A DNA stretch of 64,000 nt from Halodesulfurarchaeum sp. (GCA_034520565.1 JAXHNL010000002.1:1504001-1568000); one strand, 5' to 3'; shown: positions 7,186 to 62,933, numbered from the stretch's first letter. The notes: generated by a model from the sequence alone, not told the origin. Numbers and translations are program-made.

Positions 7186-7222
7186 TCCCGAAATTGGGGC
7201 TGCAAAGCGAGCGAAAGCGGAT

Positions 7223-27830: not shown

Positions 27831-28610
27831 ATGACGCGGAGCGTCGGGATCGTCGTTCCCGCCTATCGGCCGGACGTGTCCGTGCTCGTGGAGTATCTCG
27901 TGGACGTCGAGCGGGAACTCGAGCCCGAAACGCTTCGGGTCGAACTCGACGCCCCGACGGACGAGACGCTCGAAGCGCTTCGGGAAACGTCGGCGACGAT
28001 CAACGCCGTCGATCACCGTCGTGGAAAGGGTGCAGCGATTACCGCGGGGTTCGAAGCCCTTTCGACGGACGTCCTCGCGTTTGCCGACGCCGATGGAAGC
28101 ACCCCTGCCGAATCGATCCGGGCGGTCGTCGATGCCGTCGAAACTGGGAACAGCGACGTTGCCGTCGGGTCACGCCGGCATCCGGATGCCGACGTTCGGT
28201 CCCACCAGACCGTCCTCAGGCAGCATCTCGGTGACGCATTCGCCTGGATCGCCCGTCGCTTTCTCGGTCCCAAGTTGCGCGATTACCAGTGTGGCGCCAA
28301 GGCCATGACTCGGGAGACGTGGCTCGCCATCCGTGAACACCTCTACGAACCGGGGTTCGCCTGGGACGTCGAAGTGATCGCCATGGCCGACGCGTTCGGG
28401 TTCGAAATCACCGAGGTCCCGGTCATCTGGATCGACCATCCCGATTCGACGGTCACGACGACGAGCGCGGTTCCGGAACTGCTGTGGGCGCTTTTTTCCG
28501 CCCGCAATCGAGCGAAAATGCTGATGCGGGGTCAACTCCACGGGACCGGGTCCGGTGGCGAGACGACAACCCCAAATGACGAGCGTCCGCTCGTGGAGCG
28601 TGAGGAATGA
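27831..28610 (+). CDS. Family 2 glycosyltransferase (dolichyl-phosphate glycosyltransferase-like)
   Basis: IVVPAY, GKGAAITAG, FADADGS, VGSR, DYQCGAK, GFAWDVE. Confidence 0.9.
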   Translation: MTRSVGIVVPAYRPDVSVLVEYLVDVERELEPETLRVELDAPTDETLEALRETSATINAVDHRRGKGAAITAGFEALSTDVLAFADADGSTPAESIRAVVDAVETGNSDVAVGSRRHPDADVRSHQTVLRQHLGDAFAWIARRFLGPKLRDYQCGAKAMTRETWLAIREHLYEPGFAWDVEVIAMADAFGFEITEVPVIWIDHPDSTVTTTSAVPELLWALFSARNRAKMLMRGQLHGTGSGGETTTPNDERPLVEREE

Positions 28611-29950: not shown

Positions 29951-31108
29951 GTGATGCCAGCAGCTGGCACTGACATCCTGGTTCCGGTCAACGATTCCGA
30001 AACGTTTCGGAACACGGTGACCTACGCGGTTCGGGAGGCCCAGGATATCGCCGAGAACGAGGGGACGAAGCCGACGGTTTACTTCGTCTACCCCATCCGT
30101 TGGCGACCGATAAAAGGTGTCGACGTCCTCCCCGGCGATTCTACGGATTTGTTCGAACGAATCCACTTGTGGGCCCGGGAAGACCTCGATGAGGAGGCGC
30201 TTTCGGACGGTGAACTCCCGATCGAGATCGTGACCGACCTGATCGGTCGGGATCGATATCTGTTCTCCCCTGCCGATTATGCCTCGGTGATTCGCGAGTA
30301 CGCACATGACCACGATATCGAACGCGTCGTCCTCGATCCCGAATACCACCCGGGCGGAACCGCGCCCCTGATGGAACCGATTCTGGCGGCACTCGAACTC
30401 ACCGGGTTGACAGTCGAGGAAGCACCAGTCGAACGGGTTACCGTGCGCACGCCGGTTTCGAGTCGGGCGACGCTCGCGAAAGCGGGCCTGGTGTTCGGTG
30501 TCTCCTATGCGTTTTATTTGATCCTCGGTGGAACATTGACCTCATTCAATCTGCTAACCGGGGCCCTCGTCGCCGGACTTTCGACAGCGGTTTTTGCAGG
30601 GATCACGGCAGAACACCGGCCGGTATTCACATCACTTTTCGCTCGCGTAGCCAGATTGCTCGTCTATTTCCCGTATCTCCTCTGGGAAATCGCGAAAGCA
30701 AATCTTAGCGTCGCCTACATCATCCTTCACCCGAGTTTACCCATCGACCCGGAGATGCGTCAGTTCGAAGCGGCGGTCTGGGGCGAGTATTCGGTCACCA
30801 CGTTGGCGAACAGCATCACGTTGACTCCGGGAACCTTGACCGTGGACGTCCGTCGTGACAGTCTCTATATTCACACGTTGACACAAGATGCCCGGGACGG
30901 CCTCGACGACGGTGCCCTCGAACGAGCGGTCCGATTCGTCTTTTTCGGGCGAAATGCGATGGATATTCCGACACCGCTGGAGCGAAACGCGGTTTTGGCT
31001 CCAGAAACGGCAACTGTCAGGCGTCGACTCAGGGACGAACTGACGCGGTTTTCGGCAGACGGGGAGATCCGTGTTCCCGAACGGCCGGAGGGGTGGGACG
31101 AGGAATGA
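29951..31108 (+). CDS. mrpE: Mrp antiporter subunit E with N-terminal Usp-like domain
   Basis: C-terminal LANSITLTPGTLTVD..LYIHTL; N-terminal ILVPVNDS.....V.YA Usp-like start. Confidence 0.88.
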   Translation: MMPAAGTDILVPVNDSETFRNTVTYAVREAQDIAENEGTKPTVYFVYPIRWRPIKGVDVLPGDSTDLFERIHLWAREDLDEEALSDGELPIEIVTDLIGRDRYLFSPADYASVIREYAHDHDIERVVLDPEYHPGGTAPLMEPILAALELTGLTVEEAPVERVTVRTPVSSRATLAKAGLVFGVSYAFYLILGGTLTSFNLLTGALVAGLSTAVFAGITAEHRPVFTSLFARVARLLVYFPYLLWEIAKANLSVAYIILHPSLPIDPEMRQFEAAVWGEYSVTTLANSITLTPGTLTVDVRRDSLYIHTLTQDARDGLDDGALERAVRFVFFGRNAMDIPTPLERNAVLAPETATVRRRLRDELTRFSADGEIRVPERPEGWDEE

Positions 31109-31395
31109 TCGAACAGAGCGTAGTCACCTTCGAAACGGCCTTGCTCGGTGCCGCCACCGTGACGGTCCTTTTTGCCGTCGGATTGCTCTATCGCGTCGCA
31201 GTGGGCCCCACGATGGAGGACCGTGTGATCGCCATCAACGCCGTGGGGACGAACACGGTCGTGGTGCTCGCGTTACTGGCGGTGGCCCTCGACCGCCCCG
31301 GCTTTCTCGACATCGCGATCGTGTACGCATTGCTCAACTTCCTCGCGAGTATCGCGATCTCGAAGTTCATCGTGGAACGCGGAGGTGTCCTCTAG
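31105..31395 (+). CDS. mrpF: Mrp antiporter subunit F
   Basis: GPTMEDRVIA, LDIAIVYALLNF. Confidence 0.92.
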   Translation: MIEQSVVTFETALLGAATVTVLFAVGLLYRVAVGPTMEDRVIAINAVGTNTVVVLALLAVALDRPGFLDIAIVYALLNFLASIAISKFIVERGGVL

Positions 31396-31710
31396 ATGAC
31401 GCCCTTCGAGTATCTCGTCGTCGCGCTGGTGGCTGGAGGGGTCTTTTTCTCCTTCGTCGCGGTCGTCGGTATCATCCGATTACCGGACCTGTATACCCGC
31501 GCTCACGCGACGTCCAAGAGTGACACCCTCGGAACGATCCTTTCGCTTGCCGGGGTGGCACTCGTGCTCGGATCAGACATCGCTGCAGCCAAAACAGTCT
31601 TCCTCCTGTTGTTCATGCTCATCACCAATCCGACAGCCGCTCACGCCATCACGAGAGCCGCCTACGACCAGGACATCGAACCGTGGACGACCGAGGAGGG
31701 TGATGATTAG
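31396..31710 (+). CDS. mrpG: Mrp antiporter subunit G
   Basis: RLPDLYTRAHATSKSDTLG, TNPTAAHAI. Confidence 0.92.
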   Translation: MTPFEYLVVALVAGGVFFSFVAVVGIIRLPDLYTRAHATSKSDTLGTILSLAGVALVLGSDIAAAKTVFLLLFMLITNPTAAHAITRAAYDQDIEPWTTEEGDD

Positions 31711-32247
31711 ATGGAGCTATTCCTCTTTGCCACGCTGCTTGGGTTCGTGGTCCTCGCCGCCGGTATCTCGGTCTTGCTCCGGGACGTGCTCAGTGCGATC
31801 ATCGCGCTGGCCGGGTTCAGTTTCGGGGCTGCGATCGTGTACGTCCTGCTGAGTGCACCGGACGTCGCACTCACCGAGGCAGCAGTTGGTGCCGGCGCGA
31901 CCACTGTGCTCTTTCTGGTTACCATCGTCAAAACGGTGCGGCCGAGTGGGAAACGCGTCTTTGAACACGTCAAATGGGGACCGCTGGCGCTCGTCGGCGT
32001 GCTCCTTGTGACGTTGCTCGTGACCCTTCCGGCACTTCCCTCGATCGGTGATCCGGAATCGGCTGTCGTCGTCGGCGACGTGACGACGTATTACCTCCAA
32101 AACGCCTATCCAGAAACCGGCGTCGAGAACGTCGTCACCGCAGTTCTCGCGGCGTACCGTGGATTCGACACGCTCGGCGAGGCGACAGTCGTCGTCGCCG
32201 CCGGAATCGCCGTCTTGCTCGTCCTCAGACGGGAGGTGTACGTATGA
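31711..32247 (+). CDS. Mrp antiporter subunit B-like (DUF4040 / MrpA C-terminal part)
   Basis: APDVALTEAAVGAG, NVVTAVLAAYRGFDTLGE. Confidence 0.88.
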   Translation: MELFLFATLLGFVVLAAGISVLLRDVLSAIIALAGFSFGAAIVYVLLSAPDVALTEAAVGAGATTVLFLVTIVKTVRPSGKRVFEHVKWGPLALVGVLLVTLLVTLPALPSIGDPESAVVVGDVTTYYLQNAYPETGVENVVTAVLAAYRGFDTLGEATVVVAAGIAVLLVLRREVYV

Positions 32248-32699
32248 GTAGCTCCCGTCCGCACCGGACGTACGTCGAAAGCACGATCATTATGACGACG
32301 GTCCGGCTGGTTGCCCCCTTCGTCTTTACGTTCGGCCTGTTCGTGATGTTCCACGGGGCCGAATCCGCAGGCGGTGGGTTCCAGGGCGGGGTCATTGTGG
32401 CTGCCAGTCTCATCCTCGTCGCGTTCGCGTTCGGGATCGAACCGACCCGCGAGTGGATCACGGACCGGCCGGTGCGGCTGGTAATCGCCGGCGGGGCGTT
32501 AACCTTCGTTCTCGTCGGTCTGGGAGCGCTCGTATCAGGTGGGTTGTTCCTCCAGTACGATGCCTACGAGATCCATCACGGGACGAAATACGGCATCGAA
32601 CTCGTGGAACTGGGTATCGGGGCCATCGTGTCCGGTGTGATCCTATCGCTGTTTATGAACCTGGCCGCCGGTCTCACCGAGGGAGGTGAGGAGGAATGA
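32244..32699 (+). CDS. mrpB: Mrp antiporter subunit B (MnhB domain)
   Basis: HGAESAGGGFQGG motif. Confidence 0.88.
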   Translation: MSSSRPHRTYVESTIIMTTVRLVAPFVFTFGLFVMFHGAESAGGGFQGGVIVAASLILVAFAFGIEPTREWITDRPVRLVIAGGALTFVLVGLGALVSGGLFLQYDAYEIHHGTKYGIELVELGIGAIVSGVILSLFMNLAAGLTEGGEEE

Positions 32700-33055
32700 T
32701 CGAACTCCTGATCACCCATCACACCTACGTCGCGGCGATGCTCCTCGTGGTAATTGGGCTCTATGGGGTGATCGCCAGCCCGAACTTCGTCAAGAAGGTT
32801 GTGGGCCTGAACGTCTTCCAGGTCGGTATCTTCCTGTTTTTCATCAGCAGCGGGTACATCGAGGGAGGAGCGCCACCAGTCGCTGGGCACGGGACTGAGA
32901 CCCTCGTGAGTCCCCTTCCACACGTGCTTATCCTGACCGCCATCGTCGTCGGGGTGAGTCTCACCGCCGTGGCCCTCGCCCTCATCGTCAGGATCTACGC
33001 CGAATATGGCTCTCTCGACGAGGACGTCATCCGGGAGGTGAGTATCGATGACTGA
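32696..33055 (+). CDS. mrpC: Mrp antiporter subunit C
   Basis: NFVKKVVGL, PLPHVLILTAIVVG. Confidence 0.93.
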   Translation: MIELLITHHTYVAAMLLVVIGLYGVIASPNFVKKVVGLNVFQVGIFLFFISSGYIEGGAPPVAGHGTETLVSPLPHVLILTAIVVGVSLTAVALALIVRIYAEYGSLDEDVIREVSIDD

Positions 33056-34532
33056 CACGCTCGTCCTCCTCGTCGCGGCACCGATATTTGCCGCCCTCGT
33101 TCCGATACTGTCCGGGCTCGTGGTGGAGCGATCAGGTCGATACGTGGCACTCGGATTGGCAGGCCTCCAGGTCGTCCTCGCGGGATCCGTACTCGACCAG
33201 GTACTTCGATCCGGCCGGTTCACCTACGAAGTGGGTGGGTACGTCCCGCCCTTCGGCATCGAACTCGTGGCCGACGGCGTGTCAGCGCCACTGCTCGTGC
33301 TGATCGCGTTGACGACGCTGGGGGTCGTGGTGTACTCGTTCCGGGCCGGACCACATTCTGACGCCTTCTACAGCGAGTTGCTGTTGCTGGTCGCAGGCCT
33401 TTCCGGGCTCGTTGCGACCGGGGACGTGTTCAACCTGTACGTATTTCTGGAAATTACGGGACTCGCGACCTACGCCATCGTTGCGAGTGGACAGTCTTCG
33501 GGAGCGGCATACGCCGCACTCAAGTACCTGATCGTGGGGACGATCGGGGCGTCGTTCTACCTGCTTGGTGTCGGATATCTGTTCGTCGCGACGGGCACGC
33601 TAAACATGGCCGACCTTGCACAGTCGCTCCCTGCGGTCGGATACTCGTCGCCACTGGTGCTCGCAGGCTTCGGCTTTATCGTCGTCGGACTGGCGGTGAA
33701 GGTGGCACTCTTCCCGCTTCACACCTGGCAACCGGACGCGTACGCTGAGTCCCCGCATTCGGTCAGTGCCTATATCGCTGCACTGGTCTCGACCGCGGCG
33801 GCGTATGCACTCTTCCGGATCGTCTACGGCGTGTTCACGCTCGACTTCCTGGAGGCCGTTCCACTGGCCCGGAACGCGATCCTCGGATTTGCGACGATCA
33901 GTATCGTGGTTGGCGCCGTTCTCGCGGTCCTGCAGACTGATCTCAAACGGATGCTCGCGTACTCCTCTGTCTCGCACTTCGGGCTCGTCGTCACGGCGCT
34001 CGCGATCGGGAACGAGACTGCCGTAACCGGGGGACTCATTCACCTGGTCGGTCACGGAATCATGAAGGGTGGGTTGTTCCTCGCCGTCGGCATTTTCGCC
34101 ACTGTCGCTGGAGCCAGGCGGATCGACGACTTGGCCGGGCTGGGCACCCGTCTTCCAGTCACGAGTGCGGCATTCGCAGTCCTCGCGTTCAGCATGGTCG
34201 GTGTCCCACCTGCCATCGGCTTTCCCGGGAAGTGGAACATCGTTGTGGGCGCCGTCGAAGGGGGTGAATGGGCTGTCGCGGTGGTCGTCGTCGCGAGTAC
34301 GTTGCTCACGCTCGGCTACTTCGGCCGTCTCGTCGAGCGCCTGTACTTCACACAGCCGAATTCGACGAGCGAACGGGGGATCGAGGCCGTCGCTGATGGG
34401 GGCGAGGGAATCGACCCGTCCGCACTCATGCTCGCGGTCGTCGCGGTGACTGCAGTCGTCGCCGTCGGTCTCGGGCTCGGCGTGTCGAACTTGATCGACG
34501 CCTACGAGCCCGTCCTGGAGGTGTACTTCTGA
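33048..34532 (+). CDS. mrpD: Mrp antiporter subunit D-type
   Basis: GDVFNLYVFLEI, KVALFPLHTWQPDAY, LKRMLAYSS. Confidence 0.92.
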   Translation: MTDTLVLLVAAPIFAALVPILSGLVVERSGRYVALGLAGLQVVLAGSVLDQVLRSGRFTYEVGGYVPPFGIELVADGVSAPLLVLIALTTLGVVVYSFRAGPHSDAFYSELLLLVAGLSGLVATGDVFNLYVFLEITGLATYAIVASGQSSGAAYAALKYLIVGTIGASFYLLGVGYLFVATGTLNMADLAQSLPAVGYSSPLVLAGFGFIVVGLAVKVALFPLHTWQPDAYAESPHSVSAYIAALVSTAAAYALFRIVYGVFTLDFLEAVPLARNAILGFATISIVVGAVLAVLQTDLKRMLAYSSVSHFGLVVTALAIGNETAVTGGLIHLVGHGIMKGGLFLAVGIFATVAGARRIDDLAGLGTRLPVTSAAFAVLAFSMVGVPPAIGFPGKWNIVVGAVEGGEWAVAVVVVASTLLTLGYFGRLVERLYFTQPNSTSERGIEAVADGGEGIDPSALMLAVVAVTAVVAVGLGLGVSNLIDAYEPVLEVYF

Positions 34533-36220
34533 TGAGTAGTGTCACGTCGCTCCTGCCCCTCGCGGCAGTCGGAACGCCGATCGTCGGTATCGTCGCCATC
34601 ATCGCTGCACGCCGACAGCCGAACGTCCGTGAGGGTTTCACCATTCTCACGGCCGTCACCACGCTGCTTCTCGTGGCGAGTATGGTTCCAACCGTGCTGG
34701 CCGGGAACGTCCCGACTACTTCGTTGGGGTCGTTCGTCCCCGGCGTGGAATTCGTGCTCCGAGCTGACCCGTTGGGAATGGTGTTCGGATTGCTCGCCAG
34801 TTTCCTGTGGCTCGTCACGAGTTTCTACAGCATCGGGTACATGCGGGGACTCGACGAGCACTCCCAGACCCGGTATTACGCAGCATTCGCGGGCAGTATT
34901 GCCTCTGCAGTCGGGGTGGCGTTCGCGTCGAATCTGATCGTCCTCTACGTGTTCTACGAACTGCTGACCGTGGCGACGTATCCGCTGGTTGCCCACGACG
35001 AGACCGAGGAGGCCCGAACTGCCGGTCGGAAGTACCTCGCCTACACCTTCGGTGGCGGGGTTGCGGCACTGGCCGGGACGGCGCTCCTGTTCGTCGCGAC
35101 TGGGACGATCGCCTTCACCCCGGGCGGGATCGCGGAGTTGGGTGTCGTCGATCCGGTGATGGGAAAGGTTATCTTTGCCTTGCTCGCCGGTGGATTCGGC
35201 GTCAAGGCCGCGCTCATGCCAGTTCACTCGTGGCTCCCCGACGCGATGGTGGCGCCGACCCCCGTCTCGGGGCTGCTCCACGCGGTGGCGGTCGTCAAAA
35301 GCGGCGTATTCGCGATCGCGCGGGTCGTTCTCGACGTCTTCGGCCCGGTACAGATGTCCGAGTTCGGGCTCGGTTTGCCGCTGGCCATCGTCGCGGGACT
35401 GACGATCGTCATCGCGAGCGTGATCGCCTTGCGACAGGACAACCTCAAACGCCGGTTGGCCTACTCGACGATCAGTCAACTCTCCTATATCGTCCTTGGA
35501 CTGGCGCTGCTCTCGCCGGCCGCGCTCGTGGGTGGGTTGCTCCACATTCCCGCTCACGCGTTCATGAAACTCACGCTGTTCTTCGCTGCCGGTGTGATCC
35601 ACGTCGAAACCCACACCGACGACATCAGCGACATGGTCGGGATCGGCCGGCGAATGCCCTTGACGATGATCGCCTTCGGCGTGGCGAGCGTCGGCATGGC
35701 TGGCTTGCCACTCGTTGCCGGCTTCGTCAGCAAGTGGTATCTCCTCATCGGGAGCGTGGACGCCGGTAAAACGGTTTTCGTCCTCGTGCTCCTCACCTCC
35801 GGACTGCTCAATATCGCGTACTTCTGGCCGATCGTCTACCAGGCGTTCTTCCAGACGCCCGCAACCGCCGATTCCAAGCCGGTCATCGAGGGCCCCTTCG
35901 GCGGGAACCCCACGCGGACGGACGGTGGTTCCCCCGACCGGCCGGAGGCAGGAACCTATGCGGTCGATCGAAACCCGAGCGATATTGATCGGGACGATGG
36001 GGCTGGGGGAGACGCCGAACATCACGACGACCACCACGGCGGTGCCCCACCCGGCGGGTGGGAATCACGCTCGATTTTCACCGAGAGCACGTGGTTCATG
36101 CTTGGCCCGATCGTCGTCGCCGTGAGCGGTGCCGTCGTGCTCGGGATCGTCCCCCACGGGGCGATCTTCCTCGAGTTGATCTTTGACATCGTCGCGAACG
36201 CGACGGGGGTGGCCTTCTAA
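34532..36220 (+). CDS. Mrp antiporter subunit D/A-type
   Basis: KAALMPVHSWLPDAMVAPTPVSGLLHAV, LKRRLAYST; His/Asp-rich insert near C-terminus. Confidence 0.9.
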   Translation: MSSVTSLLPLAAVGTPIVGIVAIIAARRQPNVREGFTILTAVTTLLLVASMVPTVLAGNVPTTSLGSFVPGVEFVLRADPLGMVFGLLASFLWLVTSFYSIGYMRGLDEHSQTRYYAAFAGSIASAVGVAFASNLIVLYVFYELLTVATYPLVAHDETEEARTAGRKYLAYTFGGGVAALAGTALLFVATGTIAFTPGGIAELGVVDPVMGKVIFALLAGGFGVKAALMPVHSWLPDAMVAPTPVSGLLHAVAVVKSGVFAIARVVLDVFGPVQMSEFGLGLPLAIVAGLTIVIASVIALRQDNLKRRLAYSTISQLSYIVLGLALLSPAALVGGLLHIPAHAFMKLTLFFAAGVIHVETHTDDISDMVGIGRRMPLTMIAFGVASVGMAGLPLVAGFVSKWYLLIGSVDAGKTVFVLVLLTSGLLNIAYFWPIVYQAFFQTPATADSKPVIEGPFGGNPTRTDGGSPDRPEAGTYAVDRNPSDIDRDDGAGGDAEHHDDHHGGAPPGGWESRSIFTESTWFMLGPIVVAVSGAVVLGIVPHGAIFLELIFDIVANATGVAF

Positions 36221-37959
36221 TGGAACTCGTTTCTGTCGTGCCACCGGCCTTCGTCGTCCTGGCGGTGGCCGTCCTGTTGCCGTTTCTTCCCCGTCGGTTC
36301 GGTCACGCACTTGGGGTCATCGCGACGGCGGGCGCGTCGGTGTGGTCGCTGCTGGTTCCAGCGGGTATCCACGTCCCGATGCAGTTCCTCGGGTTCGAAG
36401 CGATCCTGTTGCAGGTCGACACGCTCTCCCGGCTCATGGGCGTCATTTTCGGCCTTATCGGGGCCGCAGCCGTCCTCTATTCGTACTCGTCGAACGCCGA
36501 GAACCGACAGACCGCGTTCGCCCTGGGCTACGTCGGGACCAGTCTCGGCGCAGTCTTCGCCGGCGACTGGCTGACGATGGTGTTCTTCTGGGAGTTGATG
36601 GCGGTGACGAGCACGCTCCTGGTCTGGGATTACGGTGGCGAGGCTGTCAGGGCGGGCTTTCGGTACGCGATCTACCACGGTCTCGGCGGGAGTTTGCTGA
36701 TGGCCGCGGTCGTGTGGCACTACACCGAAGTGGGCTCGTTCCTCTTCAGCGCGAGTGACGGAATCGTCCCCGGCGTCCCAACCGCGCTCGCGGCAATCGG
36801 CATCGGGGTCAACGTCGGATTCGTCGGGCTGCACACCTGGCTTCCGGACACGTATCCGCGGCCACACGTCGCCGCGAGTGTCTTCCTCTCGGTCTACACG
36901 ACGAAGACCGGCGTGTACGGACTCGCTCGCGCCTTCCCGGACGGCCAGATCGCGATCGCCTACATGGGCGCGGCGATGGCCATGATCGGCGTGATATACG
37001 CGCTCCTCCAGAACGACATGCGCCGGCTGCTCTCCTATCACATTCAGTCACAGGTCGGGTACATGGTCGCCGGGGTCGGGATCGGGACCGCGCTGGCGAC
37101 GGCCGGTGCCTTCGCGCACGTGTTCAATCACATCCTCTACAAGGCGCTCCTGTTCATGACTGCGGGCGTAATCATTGCACGGACTGGTAAACAACACCTG
37201 GACCAGTTGGGAAAACTCCGGGGATACCTCCCCTTCACGGCCCTTGCCTTCACGATCGCCGCACTTTCGATCAGTGGGTTCCCCGGGTTCAACGGCTTCG
37301 TGAGCAAGGGGATGATCACGGCTGCCGCTCACGAGGAACACCTCACGGTGATCTACTACTTGCTCATGGCCGCCGGCGTGGGTACCTTCATGTCGTTCAT
37401 CAAGTTCGGCTACTACGCCTTCTTCCACGACCACGGACAGACCTACGACGTCGAGTTCTCGGCGTGGGGCCAGCGGATTTCGATGCTTTTCGTCGCCGCG
37501 CTGACGATCCTCTTCGGGCTCTTCCCGGAGTACCTCTTCCAGATCCTCCCGGGAAGCACGGCCGGTGCCCATCCGTTCACGACGAGCCACATCACCGAAG
37601 GCCTGATTCTGGCAGGACTGGGGGTGCTCGGTTTCGTCCTCGTCAAAAAGCCACTTTCGAAGATCGGTCGGGTGCCGGACGTCGATCGGCTGATCAATCC
37701 GACCGCCTTCTACGGAACACGAACCGTCGTCCGCGGGGTCACTGAGACCTACGCCGCCGTGGATCGAGTCGTCGCCGGTGGTGCTTACGGCATCGCGGGG
37801 ACGCTTTCGAACCCGTATTCACTGCTCACGCACCTTCGCCGCTCGCTCACGGAAATGGAGCAACCGGTCAAGCCGGGCAGTTTCCGGTCCACCATCGCGG
37901 CGAGTATCGTGCTGCTGGTCGTCGTTCTCAGTGGTGTCTTGATCGGACTGCTTCTCTAA
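36220..37959 (+). CDS. Mrp antiporter subunit D/A-type
   Basis: FFWELMA, LHTWLPDTYP, MRRLLSYH, GFNGFVSK. Confidence 0.9.
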   Translation: MELVSVVPPAFVVLAVAVLLPFLPRRFGHALGVIATAGASVWSLLVPAGIHVPMQFLGFEAILLQVDTLSRLMGVIFGLIGAAAVLYSYSSNAENRQTAFALGYVGTSLGAVFAGDWLTMVFFWELMAVTSTLLVWDYGGEAVRAGFRYAIYHGLGGSLLMAAVVWHYTEVGSFLFSASDGIVPGVPTALAAIGIGVNVGFVGLHTWLPDTYPRPHVAASVFLSVYTTKTGVYGLARAFPDGQIAIAYMGAAMAMIGVIYALLQNDMRRLLSYHIQSQVGYMVAGVGIGTALATAGAFAHVFNHILYKALLFMTAGVIIARTGKQHLDQLGKLRGYLPFTALAFTIAALSISGFPGFNGFVSKGMITAAAHEEHLTVIYYLLMAAGVGTFMSFIKFGYYAFFHDHGQTYDVEFSAWGQRISMLFVAALTILFGLFPEYLFQILPGSTAGAHPFTTSHITEGLILAGLGVLGFVLVKKPLSKIGRVPDVDRLINPTAFYGTRTVVRGVTETYAAVDRVVAGGAYGIAGTLSNPYSLLTHLRRSLTEMEQPVKPGSFRSTIAASIVLLVVVLSGVLIGLLL

Positions 37960-39102
37960 AGAGCGCCACCGAGTGCTTCGGCGATTCGAAGCCCGAGATC
38001 GGCCTTCGACCCCTCGAAGGATTGTGTCTCCCCGTCGAAAACGAGTTCCGCGCCGGTCGACGCTGCACCCATCGCTTCGATTTCGTTCGCGACGACGAAC
38101 GCCATTTCGACCCGATTCAACAGTTCACGAGCGGTCTCGGGGAGTGCGTCCGGGTCGCTCTCCAGTTTGAACCCGACGATCGGAAGTGATGGCCGAGCCT
38201 CCCGCACGGCGTCGACGAGTTTTCTCGTTGGTTTCAGTTCCAGCGTTCGTTTCCGCCCCGAAGGCAACTTTTCTGGGGCCGTTTCAACCGTGTAATCCGA
38301 AATCGCCGCCGCCGAAACGAGTGCGTCGGCGTTCTCGACGGCATCGAGTGTCGCCGCAGTCATTTCCGCGGCCGTTTCGACCGAACGGACTGTCGCATAC
38401 GAGACCTCGCCGTCGGGATGAACGAGCGTGACGTCCCCACCCATGGCGTAGATTCCCCGGGCAACGGCCCGGCCAGTTCGCCCACTTGCGCGGTTCGTGA
38501 GGACCCGAACTGGATCGATCGGTTCTGCAGTTGCGCCACTCGTGACGACGACGTGAGACCCGGCGAGCGGAGACGGTGGAGTGGCCCTGGCGGTTTCGAG
38601 GGCGATCGTCTCCGCCGCGGCGATTTTCGCCTTCCCCTCCTCGACACGGGGTGGAATCACGGTGACGCCCCACCGCTCGAGGGTTTCGAGGTTCTCGTCC
38701 ACGCCGGGGTGGTCGAACATTCCCTCGTGCATCGCCGGGGCGAGGACGACCGGGATGCCCGCACCGAGGGCGGTGGTGACCGCCGTGGTCACCGGCGTGT
38801 CGTCGATTCCGCCGGCGATCTTGCCGATGGTGTTGGCCGTCGCCGGGGCGATCAGGCAGACGTCGGCCCAGCCGTCCTTGCCACAGAGTTCGACGTGCTC
38901 GACGTTTCCGGTGAGTTCGGTTACCACCTCCGCGTCGGTCGCGTAGGTAACCGCGTCCGGGTGAACGATCCCCCGTGCGGCGTCGGTCATGACGGCCCGG
39001 ACCGTCGCGCCGCGCCGCCGGAGTTCGTGGCGCCATTTCGACGACCGTCACGGCGGCGACACTCCCGGTAACCCCCAGTGCCACGTTCGTCCCGTCGAGC
39101 AT
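37956..39102 (-). CDS. coaBC: Bifunctional phosphopantothenoylcysteine decarboxylase/ligase; +1 frameshift near 39030
   Basis: MLDGTNVALGVTGSVAA (ORF 38284..39102) joins PATANT, PAMH, EPIDPVRVLTNRASG, VGFKLE (ORF 37956..38990) if one C is removed (EMAHELRRRG). Confidence 0.92.
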
Positions 39103-39210: not shown

Positions 39211-39690
39211 GTGAAACGAATCGAGGTCTCCCGACAGGTGAATCGGTCACCTGCCGTCGTTTTTGCTGCAGTTCGGGATTTCAGCACATATCCGGCGTAT
39301 TCCGACTATTTGAAAGATGTCACACCGGACGGTGACGGAGCGCCCGGGACGGAGTACGATCTCGCGGTCCACGTTTTGGGCCTCTCGTTCGACGTCCGGA
39401 CTCGACTCGACCAGTTGGAGCCACCTCGACGGATCGAATGGTCGGTTCTCGGCGATGTCGAAGCCGTCGGCCGGTGGCTCGTCACGCCGGTCGGTGATGA
39501 AACCGCCTCGAAAATCGATCTCGTTCTCGAGTACGACCCGAATTCCATCGATTCGAGCGTCGTATCGCTCCCGCTCGGAATGACTTTTTCGTGGCTCACG
39601 GACAGGGCCGAGGCGCTTGCCGAGCGAGAAGCTGGAGCCGTTCTCGATCGGCTCGTGGCCGATATCGAACGGGAAGGGGTTCGAGATTAA
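39211..39690 (+). CDS. SRPBCC (START-like) family protein
   Basis: VF..VRDFSTYPAY, PPRRIEW, GRWLV pattern; GTG start inferred. Confidence 0.78.
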   Translation: MKRIEVSRQVNRSPAVVFAAVRDFSTYPAYSDYLKDVTPDGDGAPGTEYDLAVHVLGLSFDVRTRLDQLEPPRRIEWSVLGDVEAVGRWLVTPVGDETASKIDLVLEYDPNSIDSSVVSLPLGMTFSWLTDRAEALAEREAGAVLDRLVADIEREGVRD

Positions 39691-40751
39691 CGATCGCGCT
39701 CGATGACGTAGTGGGTGAAATCGTCCAGCGAGGCTTTGACCTCGGGATCGAGGTCCAGGCCCTTGAGGTGTGATCTGGCATCCGCGGCCAGTTCCTCGGC
39801 CGTTTCGCGGGCGTGGTCGACACTGTTCGTCTCCTGGAGTAGTTCGAGAACCGCCATGATTTCGTCGTCCGTGACCGATTCGGCATCCAGCGTCGATTCG
39901 AGTCGCTCGCGGTCCCCCGGATCGGCGTTCCGGAGCGCGTGAATCACGAGCAGCGTTCGTTTTCCCTCCCGGATGTCGTTGCCGAAGGCCTTCCCGAACT
40001 CGCCGGCCTCGTCGAGCGAGTTTTTCACGTCGAGGATGTCGTCGCCGATCTGGAAGGCGATCGAGAGCGATTCGGCATAAGCCGCAAAGGCGTTTTCGAC
40101 GGTGTCGGGTTGGTCCGTGACGAGTGCGGCGAGTCGGCCGGCGATTCGCCCCAGGCAACCGGTCTTGCACGCGCTCATTTCGAGGTACTGCTCTTCACTG
40201 ATCCGGACGTTCGGCGTGTTGTGCCAGACGATGTCGGTTCCCTGTCCGAGATGTGTGCGGTTGAGTTCGAAGGTCAGCATCTCGTAGATCGCCAGCTGTT
40301 GGGTGGGTTCGAGTTCCGCCGGGTTCTGGGAGACGATCTTGAGGGGGACGAAGTAGAGGGCGTTACCCGCGTTTAGCGCGATGTCAGTCCCGTACCGAAG
40401 GTGGATAGCCTCCTCGCCGCGTCGGAGGGTGGCGTCGTCCTCGACGTCGTCGACGATGATGGTTCCCGTGTGGAGGATTTCCGGGATCGTCGCATAGGGA
40501 AGGTACTGCTCGGGATCCGCCCCGAGCGCGCGGACGAGTTCGAGAAAGAGCACCGGCCGCCACCGCTTTCCGCCTCGGTCGAGCAGGTCCCAGACCGGTT
40601 CGAAGAGGGCCTGCTCGATCGCGGTCGTGTCGTATTCGAACCGGGGCTCCCCGAACAACTCGGCCAGCTTCTCGTCGGTGATCGTCCGTGGCAGCAACGT
40701 GGCGATCTCTCGATCCACGTCCGTCCGCCACGCAGTCAACGCATCCCGCAT
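39687..40751 (-). CDS. Trans-polyprenyl diphosphate synthase, probably medium/long chain
   Basis: GGKRWRP, HTGTIIVDDVEDD (FARM), GQGTD, KTG, FQIGDDILD (SARM), DIREGKRT. Confidence 0.9.
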   Translation of the reverse strand: MRDALTAWRTDVDREIATLLPRTITDEKLAELFGEPRFEYDTTAIEQALFEPVWDLLDRGGKRWRPVLFLELVRALGADPEQYLPYATIPEILHTGTIIVDDVEDDATLRRGEEAIHLRYGTDIALNAGNALYFVPLKIVSQNPAELEPTQQLAIYEMLTFELNRTHLGQGTDIVWHNTPNVRISEEQYLEMSACKTGCLGRIAGRLAALVTDQPDTVENAFAAYAESLSIAFQIGDDILDVKNSLDEAGEFGKAFGNDIREGKRTLLVIHALRNADPGDRERLESTLDAESVTDDEIMAVLELLQETNSVDHARETAEELAADARSHLKGLDLDPEVKASLDDFTHYVIERDR

Positions 40752-40863
40752 GTCACGGAAGTGGCCTGCAGTGACCAAAAAACTTGAGTTCCCCGTTTTC
40801 CGATGTCGACTCCGTTCCCGACCGTTTCACAATTCTTTTTTGATTGGGCCGGAACTCGGGTAT

Positions 40864-42640: not shown

Positions 42641-42763
42641 ACCGGGGCGTGGGCAGGGGGCAACTTGAGCCGTTCGACACGGGCCACCGCCGCGGATTGT
42701 TGGTTGGAGACCGTCTGCAGCCGGGTTGGGAATGCTTAATGGGTCGGCCGGAAAAGTCCCGCT

Positions 42764-44065
42764 ATGGGACTGCGAACCGTCTTGTCGGGGTCGGCGGTGA
42801 CGAGACTCACCGAACCGGTCGACCCCAGATTCGAACTGGCCGCACTCGCCGGGAAAGACGAGTCACGTCCACTCGTCTTTGAGTCAGTGGCTGGCTATCC
42901 GGACGTCAGTGCCGTGACGAACGTGGTCTCCTCACGGGACCGGATTGCCGAGTCGCTGGAAATCGACCCGGGTACCATCATCGGGGCGTTGACTCAGGCC
43001 ACGACGGATCCTCGCCCGCTTGCAGCACCCACGGCCCCCCGGTTCGAACACGTCGCCGATTCGCCGAACGTGGCGGAGTACGTTCCGATCCCGACCTATT
43101 ACGCCGAGCACGAGCGTCAGTACGTCGCTTCCGGTATCGTCATTGCCAGGGATCCGGACACGGACGTTCACAATCTCTCCTTCCATCGGCTGATGTACGA
43201 TGGCGGTTCCGAGTTCGTCATGCGGCTGGTCGAACGCCACCTCCACGACATCCGGGAGCGGACCGACGGCCCCCTCGATGTTGCCATCGTCGTCGGGGTT
43301 CATCCGGCCGTCGAGCTCGCTGCTGCGACGTCGGGCAGCCCCGACATGAGCGAGCTGGAGGTCGCCAATGCGCTTCTCGACGGCGACCTGAAAACGACGA
43401 CGGTGAATGGCATTACCGTCCCCGCCGAGGCCGAGTGGGTGATGACCGGACGGATTCTCGACGAAACCCGGGCCGAAGGGCCGTTCGTGGACCTTTCCGA
43501 GACCTGGGACACCATCCGCCAGCAACCGGTCGTGGAAATCTCGGCGCTGCACCTGCGACCGGATCCCATCATCAGGGTCGTCGTTCCGGGCAGGCGGGAG
43601 CACGCACACCTGATGGGTCTCCCGCAGGAACCGCGCATCCATCGAATCGTCCAGAACACCGTTCCGACCGTGCAGGAGGTCGTGCTCACGCCGGGTGGCT
43701 GTTCCTGGCTCCATGGGGTCGTCTCGATCGAGAAGCGGACCGAGGGCGACGCGAAGAACGCCGGCATGGCCGCACTTGCCGCTCACCCGTCGATGAAACG
43801 CGCTGTGGTCGTCGACCACGACATCAATCCCGCCGATCCGGATGCCGTCGAATGGGCGATTGCGACACGAGTACAACCGGACCGGGACATCACGACCATC
43901 GAAAACACGAAGGGATCCTCGCTCGATCCGTCACAGGACTTCGAGACGGGTACGCTCACCAAGTGGATCGTCGATGCCACGATTCCCGAGAACCGGGATC
44001 GGGCCGATTTCGCTGAAGCGACCGTCCCGGGGGTTGAAGACGTCTCGCTCGAAGCGTACCGATGA
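42764..44065 (+). CDS. UbiD-family prFMN decarboxylase, likely anhydromevalonate phosphate decarboxylase
   Basis: NLSFHRL, RLVERHL, PAEAE, EGPFVD, GGCSWLHGVVSI, AHPSMK..VVD.DI, VEWAIATR, GSSLDPS; directly upstream of AcnX genes. Confidence 0.88.
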   Translation: MGLRTVLSGSAVTRLTEPVDPRFELAALAGKDESRPLVFESVAGYPDVSAVTNVVSSRDRIAESLEIDPGTIIGALTQATTDPRPLAAPTAPRFEHVADSPNVAEYVPIPTYYAEHERQYVASGIVIARDPDTDVHNLSFHRLMYDGGSEFVMRLVERHLHDIRERTDGPLDVAIVVGVHPAVELAAATSGSPDMSELEVANALLDGDLKTTTVNGITVPAEAEWVMTGRILDETRAEGPFVDLSETWDTIRQQPVVEISALHLRPDPIIRVVVPGRREHAHLMGLPQEPRIHRIVQNTVPTVQEVVLTPGGCSWLHGVVSIEKRTEGDAKNAGMAALAAHPSMKRAVVVDHDINPADPDAVEWAIATRVQPDRDITTIENTKGSSLDPSQDFETGTLTKWIVDATIPENRDRADFAEATVPGVEDVSLEAYR

Positions 44066-44090
44066 TACCATATTACACTCCCCACTAACG

Positions 44091-45278
44091 ATGTCAATGG
44101 ATCTCACGACCGAGGAGGAAGCACTGCTCGAATCCGACGTTCCGGCGGTTCGAAAGTCGATGGAACTGCTCGTGCGGCTCGGTGATATCTACGGGGCCGA
44201 GGAGTTCGTCGAGATCGGTTCGGCCCAGGCCTCCGGGATCTCCTACAAGTCGATCGGCGACCCCGGCGTCGAATTTCTCGAAGGATTCGCCGAAGAAGGT
44301 GCAACGGTGCAGGTCCAGACCTTCGCAAACCCGGCCGGAATGGACATCGAGCGCTGGGAGGAGATGGGCGTCAGCGAGGAGTTTGCCACCCAACAGCGAC
44401 GGATCGTTGCCGCGCTGCGGGAGATGGGCGTGACCGTCTCGTTTACCTGCACCCCCTATCTCGCGGGGAACCTTCCCGGACCGAACGAACACATCGCGTG
44501 GGCCGAATCCTCCGCGGTTTCGTTTGCAAACAGCGTCATCGGCGCCAAAACGAACCGGGAAGGAGGTCCGTCAGCGCTCGCGGCGGCGATCACCGGGCGG
44601 ACGCCGAAACACGGGCTCCACCTCGATGAAAATCGGGAGCCGACCTACCTGATCGAGGTCGATGTTCCACTGGAGACGCAGGCGGACTTCGCCGCGCTTG
44701 GCTCCTGGACCGGACGAATCGTCGAAGACGGCAAGCCGTTCTTCGCCGGCGTAAACGGGGCGACGACGGACCAGTTGAAGTCCCTCGGCGCTGCAATGGC
44801 CGCGACTGGCGCGGTCGCCCTGCACTTCGTGGGCGGCGTGACGACTGAAAAAGCCCCGCCCGAGGACGTCGAAACCCTCCAGTTCGGGGCGGCGGAGCTC
44901 GAAGGGGAGTACGGTGACCTCTCGGCTACCGAGGACACCGACCTCATCGTGTTTGGCTGTCCCCACGCCTCGGTCGACGAGATCGGGACGGTCGCGGATC
45001 GACTCGACGGCGAATCCCTCGACCGGGACCTCTGGGTCTGCACCAGCCGCTCGGTGAAATCCCAGGCCGATCGGATGGGCTACACCGAATCGATCGAAGA
45101 CGCGGGCGGAATGGTCCTCAGTGACACCTGTAACGTCGTCGCACCGATCGAGGAGTTAGGGTACGAGTCCTCTGCGACAGATTCGGCGAAAGCCGCGAGT
45201 TATCTCCCCGGATTCGGGAACCAGACGGTGCGCTTTGACGACAAGCTCTCGCTGCTCGAGGAGGCGATCGAGGAATGA
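44091..45278 (+). CDS. Aconitase X catalytic subunit, likely phosphomevalonate dehydratase large subunit
   Basis: SYKSIGD, NPAG, TCTPY, AWAESSAV, NSVIGAKTNREGGP, GCPH, DTC (three Fe-S Cys). Confidence 0.9.
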   Translation: MSMDLTTEEEALLESDVPAVRKSMELLVRLGDIYGAEEFVEIGSAQASGISYKSIGDPGVEFLEGFAEEGATVQVQTFANPAGMDIERWEEMGVSEEFATQQRRIVAALREMGVTVSFTCTPYLAGNLPGPNEHIAWAESSAVSFANSVIGAKTNREGGPSALAAAITGRTPKHGLHLDENREPTYLIEVDVPLETQADFAALGSWTGRIVEDGKPFFAGVNGATTDQLKSLGAAMAATGAVALHFVGGVTTEKAPPEDVETLQFGAAELEGEYGDLSATEDTDLIVFGCPHASVDEIGTVADRLDGESLDRDLWVCTSRSVKSQADRMGYTESIEDAGGMVLSDTCNVVAPIEELGYESSATDSAKAASYLPGFGNQTVRFDDKLSLLEEAIEE

Positions 45279-45704
45279 GTTCGGATACCGACGCCGGGAC
45301 GACCGCCGAGGGACGAACCATTGCAGAGGGCGTCGGCGAGGGGGAGGTACTCGTCTCTCCAGAGCCGATCAGTTTCTACGGGGCAGTGGACACGAAGACC
45401 GGCGAGTTCATCGAGGAAGACCACCATCTGACCGGGAAGAACATCGCCGGCAAGGTGCTCGTCTTCCCGAAGGGGAAGGGCTCGACTGTCGGCTCGTACG
45501 TCATTTACGGGCTCGGCACAGGAGGGCACTGCCCCGGCAGCGATAGTCAATCACGAAACCGAGACGATCGTGGCCACGGGGGCGATCCTCGGCGAGGTAC
45601 CGTGTCTCGACGGTATCGAGGATGCGGTCTCTCGGTTCTCGGACGGGGATCGCGTCCGGGTGGACGCGAGCGAAGGGACGATAACCAGACTCGACAATGA
45701 GTGA
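45275..45704 (+). CDS. Aconitase X swivel subunit (DUF126), likely phosphomevalonate dehydratase small subunit; +1 frameshift near 45515
   Basis: ISFYGAVD..TG, GKVLVFPKGKGSTVGSY; removing one G restores GLAQEGTAPAAIVNHETETIVATGAIL...VRVDASEG with stop at 45704. Confidence 0.88.
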
Positions 45705-46296
45705 GTCACCCCCCGAACGCGAACGTCTCGTTGTCGGCCTCTCGGGAGCCTCGGGGATCCCGCTCGGTGTCGAAACGATTCGGGCCCTGAGCGACCACTT
45801 CGCCGTGCACACGGTCGTCACGGACGGCGCACGAGCGGTTATGGAACACGAGACCGATTCGGAAGCGGCGACGATGGAAACCATCGAGGCGGCCTCGGAA
45901 CGCGTCTACGACGGCTCGGAACTGGCAGCGCCGATATCATCGGGGACAGTAGACACAGCGGGGATGGTGGTCGTCCCGGCATCCATGAAATCCGTCGCGG
46001 CGATCGCCAACGGCTACGCCGAAAACCTGCTCGTGCGGGCGGCTGACGTCACGCTCAAGGAGGATCGGCAACTGGTGGTGGTTCCCCGCGAATCCCCGCT
46101 CAACGAGGCCCATCTCGAAAACCTGCTCGCGCTCCGGAAGCGGGGAGTGGCCGTCGTTCCGCCGGTACTCGGCTTTTACTACGACCCGGCGGGAATCGAC
46201 GACGTCATCGACCGGATCGTTGGGACGGTCCTGGATCGTTTCGACGTGAATCACGATCGGTACGTGGCGTGGAATCCGGACGAGACGTCCGAGTAA
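45697..46296 (+). CDS. ubiX: Flavin prenyltransferase
   Basis: VGLSGASG, APISSG, VPASMKSVA, RAADVTLKE, RESPL, PPVLGFY. Confidence 0.93.
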   Translation: MSESPPERERLVVGLSGASGIPLGVETIRALSDHFAVHTVVTDGARAVMEHETDSEAATMETIEAASERVYDGSELAAPISSGTVDTAGMVVVPASMKSVAAIANGYAENLLVRAADVTLKEDRQLVVVPRESPLNEAHLENLLALRKRGVAVVPPVLGFYYDPAGIDDVIDRIVGTVLDRFDVNHDRYVAWNPDETSE

Positions 46297-46375
46297 TCGT
46301 TCTCCGGTCCCTTCGAAACGAGCAGCGGTTCAGGCATGCGTGATGTTTATGCGCCGTCCGCACCCCTCACCGAGC

Positions 46376-47356
46376 ATGAAGGCCACCGCCCGGGCACATC
46401 CCATTCAGGGGCTCGTCAAGTATCACGGGCTCCGGGATATGGCGCTTCGGTACCCGTATCACGACAGCATCAGCGTGGCAACTGCACCAGCCGAGACCGT
46501 TACCACCGTTTCGTTCGACACCGATCTCGACGCCTCGCGGTACGTCGTCGACGGCGAGGAACTCACGGGAGACGGCGCGTCCCGGGTAACGCGAGTCATC
46601 GACCGTGTTCGGGAGATTGCCGAGGACCCGGCTCTGGACGGACCGGTAAAACTGGTCAGTCAAAACACGATGCCGACGAACGTGGGTTTGGGCTCCTCGT
46701 CCTCGGGCTTTGCTGCGGCCGCGATGGCCGCCGTCGAAGCCGCCGGACTCGATCTCTCGCTGCCCGAAATCTCGACGATCGCCCGGTTGGGATCGGCTTC
46801 GGCTGCCCGTTCGGTGACCGGTGGCTTTTCGGACCTCCGGGCCGGAACGACGGACGAAGATTGCCGTTCGGAGCGCATTCGGTCGCCACTCGAGGACGAT
46901 CTCGAAATCGTGGTCGGAATCGTTTCGGCCTACAAGGAGACGGGATGGGCCCACGAGGAGGCGACCGAAAGCCACCTCTGGCAGTCCCGACTGGCTCACG
47001 TCCACGACCAGTTGGCCGCGATGCGGCAGGCACTCCGGGAGGGCGATTTCGGGACGGCTTTCGAGGTCGCAGAACACGACACGTTGAGTCTCGCCGCGAC
47101 GACGATGACCGGGCCCGAGGCGTGGATCTACTGGAAGCCGCGAACGCTGGAGATCTTCGAGCGCGTTCGAACCCTTCGCGAGGACGGGATTCTGGCGTAC
47201 TTCTCGACTGATACGGGGGCGACCGTGTACGTGAACACGACGAGCGAGTACGTCGATCGGGTCGAACAAGCGGTCGCGGAGGTTGGCGTCGAAACCCGCA
47301 CCTGGGCGGTTGGTGGCCCGGCGACGGTGCTTCCCAACTCGGAAGCACTCTTCTGA
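46376..47356 (+). CDS. mvaD: Phosphomevalonate decarboxylase (haloarchaea-type, GHMP family)
   Basis: MKATARAHPIQGLVKYHG, PYHDSISV, GLGSSSSGFAA, GSASAARSVTGG, FSTDTGA. Confidence 0.92.
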   Translation: MKATARAHPIQGLVKYHGLRDMALRYPYHDSISVATAPAETVTTVSFDTDLDASRYVVDGEELTGDGASRVTRVIDRVREIAEDPALDGPVKLVSQNTMPTNVGLGSSSSGFAAAAMAAVEAAGLDLSLPEISTIARLGSASAARSVTGGFSDLRAGTTDEDCRSERIRSPLEDDLEIVVGIVSAYKETGWAHEEATESHLWQSRLAHVHDQLAAMRQALREGDFGTAFEVAEHDTLSLAATTMTGPEAWIYWKPRTLEIFERVRTLREDGILAYFSTDTGATVYVNTTSEYVDRVEQAVAEVGVETRTWAVGGPATVLPNSEALF

Positions 47357-61936: not shown

Positions 61937-62933
61937 TCACCGCCCGGTTGATCGCTTCCGCAATTCGACGTCGAGGACGACGTTCAACTCGTGGGGCGCG
62001 TAGGTTCGCACCTCGTGGCGGGTCAGCACCTCGACATCATAGGTCGGTTCGGCCGCCGCTCGGATGGCCTGCTCGCCTGGCTCGAACGGGGCGGACTCGT
62101 GTTGGATGTCGTAATAGTGGAGCACGGCTCTGTCGCCGGCGAGTTCGACGGCCGTGTCGAGAAATTCGTTTGCGGAGTGTGGCAGGTTCATGACGATCCG
62201 ATCGGCCCAGTCCCCGTAGTCGAACCGCGACCGTCTCGAACGTCTCCAACGATTCCCGTCACGCGGTCTTCGACGCCGTTGCGCGGGCATTTTCCCGGAG
62301 ATACTCGATGGCCGTCCCGTTCACGTCAGTCCCGACGACCGTGGCACCCATTTGGGCCATCGGAATGGCAAACGGACCGACGCCGGCGAACATGTCGAAG
62401 ACGTGCTCGCCGGGTTCGACCTGCTTGACGACCCGGTGGCGTTCGGTGGCCAGTCGGGGCGAGAAATAGACGTCGTCGAGATCGAGTGCGAACTCCGCGC
62501 CGTATTCGCGATGAACCGTCTCCGTGGTCGATCCCCGAAGGATTTCCCAGTCGCGAGTTCGCGTCCGGCCCTTGATCTTGGAGGCGCGGTTGAGGACCCC
62601 TTCGATCGGAAGATCTGACTTCCAGAGCGCCGCGGCGATCGCTTCGGCGCGGTCCGGATCGTCCTCGTCGATGATGGCCAATCCGCCGAGTCGCTCGTAA
62701 CTCGGTTCCTCACCGAGAATATCCGCCGGCATGGTCTGTGTTTCGCGTTCGGGCGGGTCGTGAGAAACGACGGTCAAGTCGGATGGGACAGCCGTTGGAT
62801 CGGTAATCGGAATAAAGACGAACTCCTCGTCGACGTCGAGATCCCACTGCTCGGCGAGCAGATCCGCTTGTGCGAGTCGCTTGCGCGTGGACTCCCCATC
62901 CGCGCGTTCGACCCGCACGCAGGGAACCGACAT
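61937..62933 (-). CDS. trm5: Trm5/Met-10+ family tRNA methyltransferase; indels at about 62220-62290
   Basis: HREYG, VYFSPRLATER, DMFAGVGPF (ORF 62259..62933) plus DRIVMNLP, LHYY, VRTYAP (ORF 61937..62290). Confidence 0.85.

Follow-up and report, generated by a model that had tools for sequence, protein, structure and literature searches.

An archaeal-type phosphomevalonate dehydratase/decarboxylase module predicted beside the haloarchaeal mvaD gene in Halodesulfurarchaeum

Results

Organization of the locus

The window analyzed here is a stretch of 64,000 nucleotides (nt) from a metagenome-assembled genome (MAG) of Halodesulfurarchaeum sp. (GCA_034520565.1 JAXHNL010000002.1:1504001-1568000), and coordinates are those of the window unless a genome or locus is named with them. 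Positions 42764-47356 contain five open reading frames (ORFs) on the plus strand in the order ubiD, acnX-L, acnX-S, ubiX, and mvaD; we predict that the first four encode the archaeal branch of the mevalonate pathway and that the fifth encodes the branch assigned to haloarchaea. The archaeal pathway of Aeropyrum pernix and Methanosarcina mazei includes phosphomevalonate dehydratase (PMDh; a type IIb aconitase X with two subunits), trans-anhydromevalonate phosphate decarboxylase (AMPD; a member of the UbiD family), and a UbiX-type synthase of prenylated FMN (prFMN); the haloarchaea-type pathway of Haloferax volcanii includes phosphomevalonate decarboxylase (MvaD/PMD) and isopentenyl phosphate kinase. 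The literature states either that in Halobacteria PMD is used in place of the archaeal route or that it has taken over from that route, in agreement with the initial annotation of this locus, in which haloarchaea are said to be described as using the ATP-consuming phosphomevalonate decarboxylase.

The first gene, ubiD (42764-44065; 433 aa), is the predicted AMPD gene, a designation drawn from Pfam and TIGR00148 matches, synteny, and a tree; its product matches all three Pfam domains, that is, PF20695 (N-terminal), PF01977 (core), and PF20696 (C-terminal), and scores 315.7 bits on TIGR00148 (cut-off 244.85). Twenty-five nt separate the ubiD stop codon from the ATG (44091) of acnX-L (44091-45278; 395 aa), which encodes the large (catalytic) AcnX subunit (PF04412, 9e-142), that is, the predicted large subunit of PMDh. 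The acnX-L stop and the acnX-S ATG share a 4-nt overlap (ATGA at 45275-45278). The acnX-S gene (45275-45704) encodes the small (swivel) subunit (PF01989, 8e-20) and is split by an extra G (vide infra); its true stop (45702-45704) overlaps the beginning of ubiX (45697-46296, with the ATG at 45697; 199 aa). The product of ubiX, a flavin prenyltransferase (prFMN synthase), scores 194.6 bits on TIGR00421 (cut-off 108.9) and 196.9 bits on NF004685 (cut-off 188); a prFMN synthase partner for UbiD is, in other words, encoded within the same gene run.

After a spacer of 79 nt follows mvaD (46376-47356; 326 aa), a gene for a haloarchaeal-type phosphomevalonate decarboxylase whose product scores 543.2 bits on the equivalog model NF040704 (cut-off 475) and covers profile positions 1-323 of 323; on the diphosphomevalonate decarboxylase model TIGR01240 the score is 159.2 bits, under the cut-off of 171.35. 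By these profile matches the product is a bona fide haloarchaeal MvaD, with a predicted ATP-dependent mevalonate 5-phosphate decarboxylase activity. The five same-strand ORFs thus bear out the arrangement originally claimed, that is, a ubiD-acnX(L)-acnX(S)-ubiX run with mvaD 79 bp further on.

AcnX and UbiD as probable enzymes of the archaeal mevalonate pathway

Among solved structures, the best match of acnX-L is the putative PMDh of Thermococcus kodakarensis (7cnr, 4.4e-100); the cis-3-hydroxyproline dehydratase structures (7cnp, 7cnq, and 7d2r) match at only 1e-55, and on the hydroxyproline-dehydratase-type model the AcnX of the window scores 248 bits (cut-off 700 bits). According to the PMDh literature (PMC10040528), the ligands of the iron-sulfur cluster are three Cys residues (sites A, 1, and B; Cys122, Cys297, and Cys356 in A. 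pernix), and site C is without Cys. In AcnX-L, Cys120 (FTCTPY), Cys290 (FGCPHAS), and Cys347 (DTCNVV) are each matched by a Cys in the aligned T. kodakarensis PMDh, and no Cys occurs two residues past Cys347, that is, the site-C Cys of type I is missing. Three sequence features of type IIb AcnX are found here: two subunits encoded by neighboring genes, the three-Cys pattern, and a closer similarity to archaeal PMDh than to hydroxyproline-dehydratase AcnX. We infer that the large and small AcnX subunits of the window are of the PMDh type, with mevalonate 5-phosphate as the probable substrate.

The whole genome contains one AcnX and one UbiD-family gene. The M. mazei genes for PMDh and AMPD that were used in a pathway reconstruction have consecutive gene IDs (PMC13198327); in 20 non-haloarchaeal loci, drawn from 19 other families of the phylum, ubiD is immediately upstream of acnX-L in 12 and ubiX adjoins ubiD in 9. 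Outside the Halobacteria, AcnX-L occurs almost throughout the phylum (166/201 genomes matched, with Halobacteria accounting for most of the misses), and the protein encoded in the window is 40-55% identical to the non-haloarchaeal members. The Halodesulfurarchaeum formicicum homologue of UbiD is 81% identical to the UbiD of the window; UniRef names proteins of H. formicicum ‘Anhydromevalonate phosphate decarboxylase’ and ‘Phosphomevalonate dehydratase large subunit’, the NCBI names are generic, and the JGI automatic name for close UbiD homologues is ‘2,5-furandicarboxylate decarboxylase 1’. Synteny, the tree, and the single copy together suggest that the UbiD of the window is AMPD; the argument that the pair is orthologous to AMPD and PMDh is built on gene neighborhood, position in the clade, and the match to the T. 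kodakarensis structure. Family matches, structure ranking, synteny, and trees (vide infra) agree with one another and with the claim that an archaeal PMDh/AMPD/UbiX module lies directly upstream of a haloarchaeal mvaD.

Selection and predicted promoters

Using Nei-Gojobori counting against the four nearest relatives (dS, the synonymous divergence, about 0.5-1.4), the ratio of non-synonymous to synonymous divergence (dN/dS) is 0.08-0.13 for ubiD, 0.05-0.08 for acnX-L, 0.04-0.10 for acnX-S (read through the frameshift, with 1/4 pairs saturated at synonymous sites), 0.06-0.11 for ubiX, and 0.08-0.09 for mvaD (three nearest relatives); these values point to purifying selection on all five genes.

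Two TATA-like elements on the plus strand were recognized by conservation and spacing. Upstream of ubiD is CTTAAT (42735-42740), in which TTA (42736-42738), 26-28 nt before the ATG, is invariant in 8/8 aligned sequences from two genera, the flanking intergenic DNA being variable; upstream of mvaD is GTTTATGC (46345-46352), in which TTAT (46347-46350), 26-29 nt before the ATG (46376), is invariant in 9/9 sequences from two genera, with the rest of the spacer variable. The position and conservation of the two elements suggest that they are the TATA boxes of predicted promoters and that the locus comprises two leaderless transcription units, ubiD-acnXL-acnXS-ubiX and mvaD.

Distribution among the Halobacteria

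Our survey covered this genome and 400 other Halobacteria genomes, each at least 90% complete (401 genomes; 89 genera). MvaD is found in 401/401 (over the cut-off in 399) and true AcnX in 19/401; the ubiD-acnXL-acnXS-ubiX run is present in 18 of the 19 AcnX genomes, that is, in 17/400 besides this genome and in 6/89 genera. The initial annotation is correct in that this genome keeps the genes for both routes; it is not unique in doing so, because 17 of the 400 others also carry the module, always with mvaD, and, as the proposed link to anaerobic life would have it, the named carriers are mostly anaerobic genera.

Within Halodesulfurarchaeum, AcnX-L is present in 10/11 other species, and the single miss is a 57% complete genome. 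The mvaD gene is directly downstream of the module in 10/10 Halodesulfurarchaeum loci and in the 1/1 locus of the sister genus, and is absent within ~450 nt past the module in 13/13 loci of the other four genera (in one genome, G025, it is ~8 kb from the module). An exception of another kind is a Halodesulfurarchaeum MAG (G003; L043 = L008, 2927-4359) with mvaD directly after acnX-S and no ubiX at the locus. The order ubiD-acnXL-acnXS-ubiX-mvaD is not a chance arrangement: apart from the ubiX-less G003 locus, it is repeated across the 10 Halodesulfurarchaeum loci examined and at the locus of one sister genus. The module is a conserved feature of Halodesulfurarchaeum that is shared by a minority of other haloarchaeal genera, all of which have MvaD.

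Named homologues are from Halodesulfurarchaeum, Halanaeroarchaeum, Halapricum desulfuricans, Halorhabdus, Halalkaliarchaeum desulfuricum, Halococcoides cellulosivorans, and a Halorientalis MAG. Halapricum, Halorhabdus, and Halococcoides are commonly counted among the sulfur-respiring or otherwise anaerobic genera; in addition, the literature describes anaerobic life for Halanaeroarchaeum and sulfur respiration for the group of Halalkaliarchaeum. The named relatives with the module are mostly members of sulfur-respiring or other anaerobic genera.

One further genome (G356; L031, G356:C6:37749-41993) contains a different two-subunit AcnX that is 32% identical to the large subunit of the window, scores 357 bits, and has no UbiD neighbor; this is probably another AcnX type with another substrate. 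It was set aside as an explanation for the locus and served as an outgroup only.

A second, diverged MvaD paralogue is encoded outside the window (G000:C2:214026-215039, minus strand; L064:1489-2505), with genes for a CobQ-like amidotransferase, an NAD-dependent epimerase, and a DUF7530 protein as neighbors. It is 49% identical to the operon copy and scores 395 bits on NF040704 (cut-off 475); its nearest match outside is 57% identical (family f11). The paralogue is present in 9/11 other Halodesulfurarchaeum species and was not found in the remaining two (G002 and G006).

Phylogeny of the module

For AcnX-L, 58 sequences went into a careful maximum-likelihood tree whose root was placed on the divergent copy from G356; for UbiD, a quick, unrooted tree was made from 46 linked sequences. 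Each sampled family was represented by one sequence. In the AcnX-L tree, the 24 haloarchaeal rows form one clade (support 100/99) that is split into family f1 (100/97) and families f2+f6 (99/98), with one f6 genome nested among the f2 sequences. The sister of this clade is a set of 8 DPANN-labelled MAGs from hypersaline sediments (100/100), and the next outgroup is family f39 of the same phylum (94/99), in whose genomes Mcr-alpha genes are present and MvaD was not found. The UbiD tree is congruent: the 24 haloarchaeal rows again form one clade (99) and share a 100*-supported group with the DPANN-labelled UbiDs. Because the two trees match, the module evolves as a unit. Haloarchaeal AcnX-L and UbiD each form a single clade, and AcnX-L falls within a set of single-copy archaeal orthologues.

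The DPANN-labelled MAGs (L047-L053 and L061; Micrarchaeota, Aenigmatarchaeota, and Iainarchaeum) carry ubiD-acnXL-acnXS(-ubiX) in 8/8 loci, and their AcnX-L proteins, 63-68% identical to that of the window, are the closest non-haloarchaeal sequences, a likeness that might be explained by gene transfer between the haloarchaea and these DPANN archaea of hypersaline sediments. The module might, then, not be ancestral, having been acquired horizontally in hypersaline sediments (e.g., from DPANN-type archaea) and spread among anaerobic haloarchaea. The sister position of the DPANN-labelled sequences in the AcnX-L tree, their grouping with haloarchaea in the UbiD tree, the patchy distribution in Halobacteria, and the nested f6 genome all suit such a transfer; however, the haloarchaeal sequences form a single clade divided along family lines, an Mcr-bearing lineage from their own phylum follows as the next outgroup, and a shared acidic composition may draw halophile sequences together. 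We therefore consider horizontal acquisition possible, although on the unlikely side. A single haloarchaeal clade that divides by family agrees with retention followed by many losses; a single early transfer in which hypersaline DPANN archaea took part could also fit, with a direction between these and the haloarchaea that cannot be read from the trees.

The frameshift in acnX-S

An indel in acnX-S had been flagged at 45515; it is present in the assembly but is located at 45517/45518, where an alignment reveals one surplus G (CTCGGCAC here vs CTC-GCCC in three relatives). Codons 1-80 are in the frame of 45275, and the last 61 codons are in the +1 frame (45519-45701), followed by the stop at 45702-45704. 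In the listed 141-aa ORF, no more than the first 87 residues match the family profiles, with PF01989 covered only at positions 1-56 of 80, and the conserved C-terminal part is found in the +1 frame. The gene is uninterrupted in 6/6 relatives read stop to stop; a programmed frameshift is ruled out because the relatives have a plain in-frame gene. The 61 codons in the +1 frame contain no stop and differ from the nearest relative by 14 synonymous vs 3 non-synonymous codons, a pattern that points to continuing purifying selection on this part of the gene.

The assembly consists of 2 contigs, yet is only 80.7% complete, and it seems rich in indels. Of 297 ORFs taken from a 400-kb portion of a complete Halodesulfurarchaeum genome, 125 have an orthologue-like match here; 99 of these are full-length, 9 are split between frames (4-5 cleanly), and 17 are partial, so frame-splits affect about 3-7% of the genes compared. 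Two more split genes, both on the minus strand, are located in the window itself: a DUF2298 gene (within 25352-28016), whose two neighboring ORFs match profile positions 39-365 and 367-488, and a Trm5/TYW2 gene (within 61937-62933), with profile positions 1-81 and 99-163. Because frame-splits are common in this assembly, an isolated indel carries little weight; and because split genes are many, completeness is low, the +1-frame part is still constrained, and the relatives are intact, the extra G is most likely an assembly error.

A salt pan metagenome was the only run with the locus among those sampled; it holds 0.94 of the sampled words, and its contigs match the window exactly and leave 45475-45531 uncovered. 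No RNA run with the locus was found. In another run, a contig of a different organism (a relative) spans the indel site with one gap. The extra G in the deposited assembly thus falls outside the coverage of the read contigs and is uncontradicted by them. If the frameshift were real, the small subunit of PMDh would have been inactivated recently, the archaeal branch would be dead or dying, and the cell would depend on MvaD; the strain might then be a snapshot of a replacement long complete in most haloarchaea. Both the loss of the module from most Halobacteria and a heme-copper oxidase that this subclade gained or kept, fitting a more oxygen-exposed life, would be in keeping with such an inactivation. 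However, the frequency of splits in the assembly argues against it, as does the apparent purifying selection on the other four genes, which are intact; also, with 61 downstream codons free of stops and differing mostly synonymously, any inactivation would have to be very recent. We therefore judge both the inactivation and the snapshot that it would represent to be improbable.

Oxygen and the oxidase cluster

The initial annotation had noted an aerobic oxidase in the window, and this gene is present: a COX1 heme-copper oxidase is encoded at 277-2010 on the minus strand (483.8 bits), in a cluster (277-10052) that also contains two plastocyanin/halocyanin-like copper proteins, DUF420, CtaA, and a UbiA-family prenyltransferase. 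In their description (PMC5437934), cultured Halodesulfurarchaeum species show no growth at 0.1-5% O2 and are cytochrome-oxidase negative, and mevalonate is not mentioned; the oxidase cluster stands in a genus that is known from culture as strictly anaerobic and oxidase-negative. COX1 is found in 2/4 other Halodesulfurarchaeum genomes tested; the other two, both 99% complete (G001 and G010), yielded no match, nor did the sister genus (G019).

On the strength of the oxidase, MvaD had been proposed to serve in air. This proposal is weakened: the three genomes without a COX1 match keep mvaD beside the module, so MvaD is not retained by oxidase-bearing strains only. A possible role for MvaD is that of a backup under transient oxidative or iron stress.

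Other features of the window

Upstream of the module, on the opposite strand, are genes for endonuclease III, NAD kinase, and a polyprenyl synthetase; the last (39687-40778, minus strand) is 2 kb upstream of the mevalonate genes. Beside it is a CoaBC-like gene (37956-38990, minus strand) whose match to the flavoprotein profile begins at position 34, so its N-terminus may be truncated or its start miscalled. Further away is a run of Mrp-type Na+/H+ antiporter genes (29951-37959; MnhE, MbhD/E, MnhB, and three Proton_antipo_M subunits). Downstream of mvaD are an AmmeMemoRadiSam radical-SAM gene and genes for ribulose-1-phosphate aldolase and an MtnA-like isomerase.

Discussion

We propose, with a probability of roughly 0.7, that the locus encodes two routes from mevalonate 5-phosphate to isopentenyl phosphate, the substrates, promoters, and division of labor being predictions from sequence. 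In the first route, the large and small AcnX subunits would form an oxygen-labile [4Fe-4S] phosphomevalonate dehydratase that produces trans-anhydromevalonate phosphate; the prFMN-dependent UbiD enzyme would decarboxylate this intermediate without ATP, using the prenylated FMN cofactor supplied by UbiX. In the second, MvaD would accomplish the same net conversion in a single step at the expense of one ATP. The two routes would be transcribed as separate units, a conserved TATA-like box preceding each of them, and the division of labor between them could follow oxygen, iron, or energy state. The literature describes PMDh as oxygen-sensitive and the archaeal route as ATP-saving (PMC10040528, PMC13198327); both properties would be relevant to this organism.

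Several points weigh against this proposal. The nearest solved structure for UbiD (6h6x, 2.9e-80) is of the furandicarboxylate-decarboxylase type, and no AMPD structure is found among the solved-structure matches of the window UbiD; the A. pernix and M. mazei reference sequences are absent under their own names from the trees. Several rows in the trees have a deviant composition, so halophile sequences may attract one another. In the deposited assembly, the frame of the small-subunit gene is broken at a site that the salt pan contigs leave uncovered, and the promoters are inferred from conservation and spacing.

That the haloarchaeal AcnX/UbiD/UbiX module acts on another hydroxy acid and that MvaD alone makes isopentenyl phosphate is very improbable: MvaD is present in every sampled haloarchaeon, so the module is in principle dispensable for the pathway, both the AcnX and UbiD families include enzymes with differing substrates, and the JGI name for close homologues is that of a furandicarboxylate decarboxylase, but the sequences are inside a clade of single-copy archaeal orthologues that are near-universal in non-haloarchaeal members of the phylum, they retain the PMDh cysteine pattern and the ubiD-acnX-ubiX synteny of the characterized system, and the module is directly beside mvaD in two genera.

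Given two routes at this locus, we tentatively suggest, at somewhat less than even odds, that anaerobic haloarchaea are living intermediates in the replacement of PMDh/AMPD by PMD: both branches would run from separate promoters, with the archaeal branch as the main one in energy-limited anoxia and MvaD as a fail-safe when the iron-sulfur enzyme is damaged, and loss of the module would track the move to aerobic life. Organisms with both routes would supply the intermediate that the replacement scenario calls for, and they make testable why an ATP-saving route was abandoned, that is, the oxygen sensitivity of the [4Fe-4S] dehydratase vs energy economy; cultured representatives exist among the relatives (H. 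formicicum and Halanaeroarchaeum sulfurireducens). The locus also is a potential source of a salt-adapted PMDh and AMPD for pathway engineering that now is based on the M. mazei genes (PMC13198327), and a warning that the mevalonate route of a haloarchaeon should not be inferred from taxonomy.

In the literature surveyed, which did not extend to the distribution tables of the founding paper, no paper was found that links anhydromevalonate, PMDh, or AMPD to the module-bearing haloarchaeal genera. On the initial annotation's own doubt, that is, whether the combination is common and already described, the answer is mixed: it occurs in 17/400 other Halobacteria and no published report was found, but the annotation is already implicit in the automatic UniProt names. 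Every part is a known enzyme; the novelty lies in their combination, the host range, and the link to anaerobic haloarchaea.

The comparison with known systems is as follows. Like the archaeal (trans-anhydromevalonate phosphate) pathway of A. pernix and M. mazei, the module contains the same families, a two-subunit dehydratase, and the three-Cys pattern, with ubiD adjacent to acnX as in M. mazei and in 12/20 sampled relatives in the phylum, and with ubiX linked. Unlike the hosts of that pathway, the organism belongs to the Halobacteria, a class listed in the literature as without the route; the module also coexists with MvaD and abuts its gene, and its AcnX-L is only 40-55% identical to those of non-haloarchaeal members of the phylum. 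The cis-3-hydroxyproline dehydratase AcnX shares the Pfam families (AcnX and swivel domain); however, its domains are fused in one chain and Cys occupies each of sites A, B, and C, whereas the AcnX of the window has two subunits and no Cys at site C. Finally, like the pathway of Haloferax volcanii, the locus encodes an MvaD that exceeds the NCBIfam equivalog cut-off and belongs to a family found in 401/401 Halobacteria; in contrast to that pathway, mvaD in Halodesulfurarchaeum directly follows the genes of the route that it is thought to have replaced, and most species of the genus add a second, diverged MvaD paralogue (49% identical).

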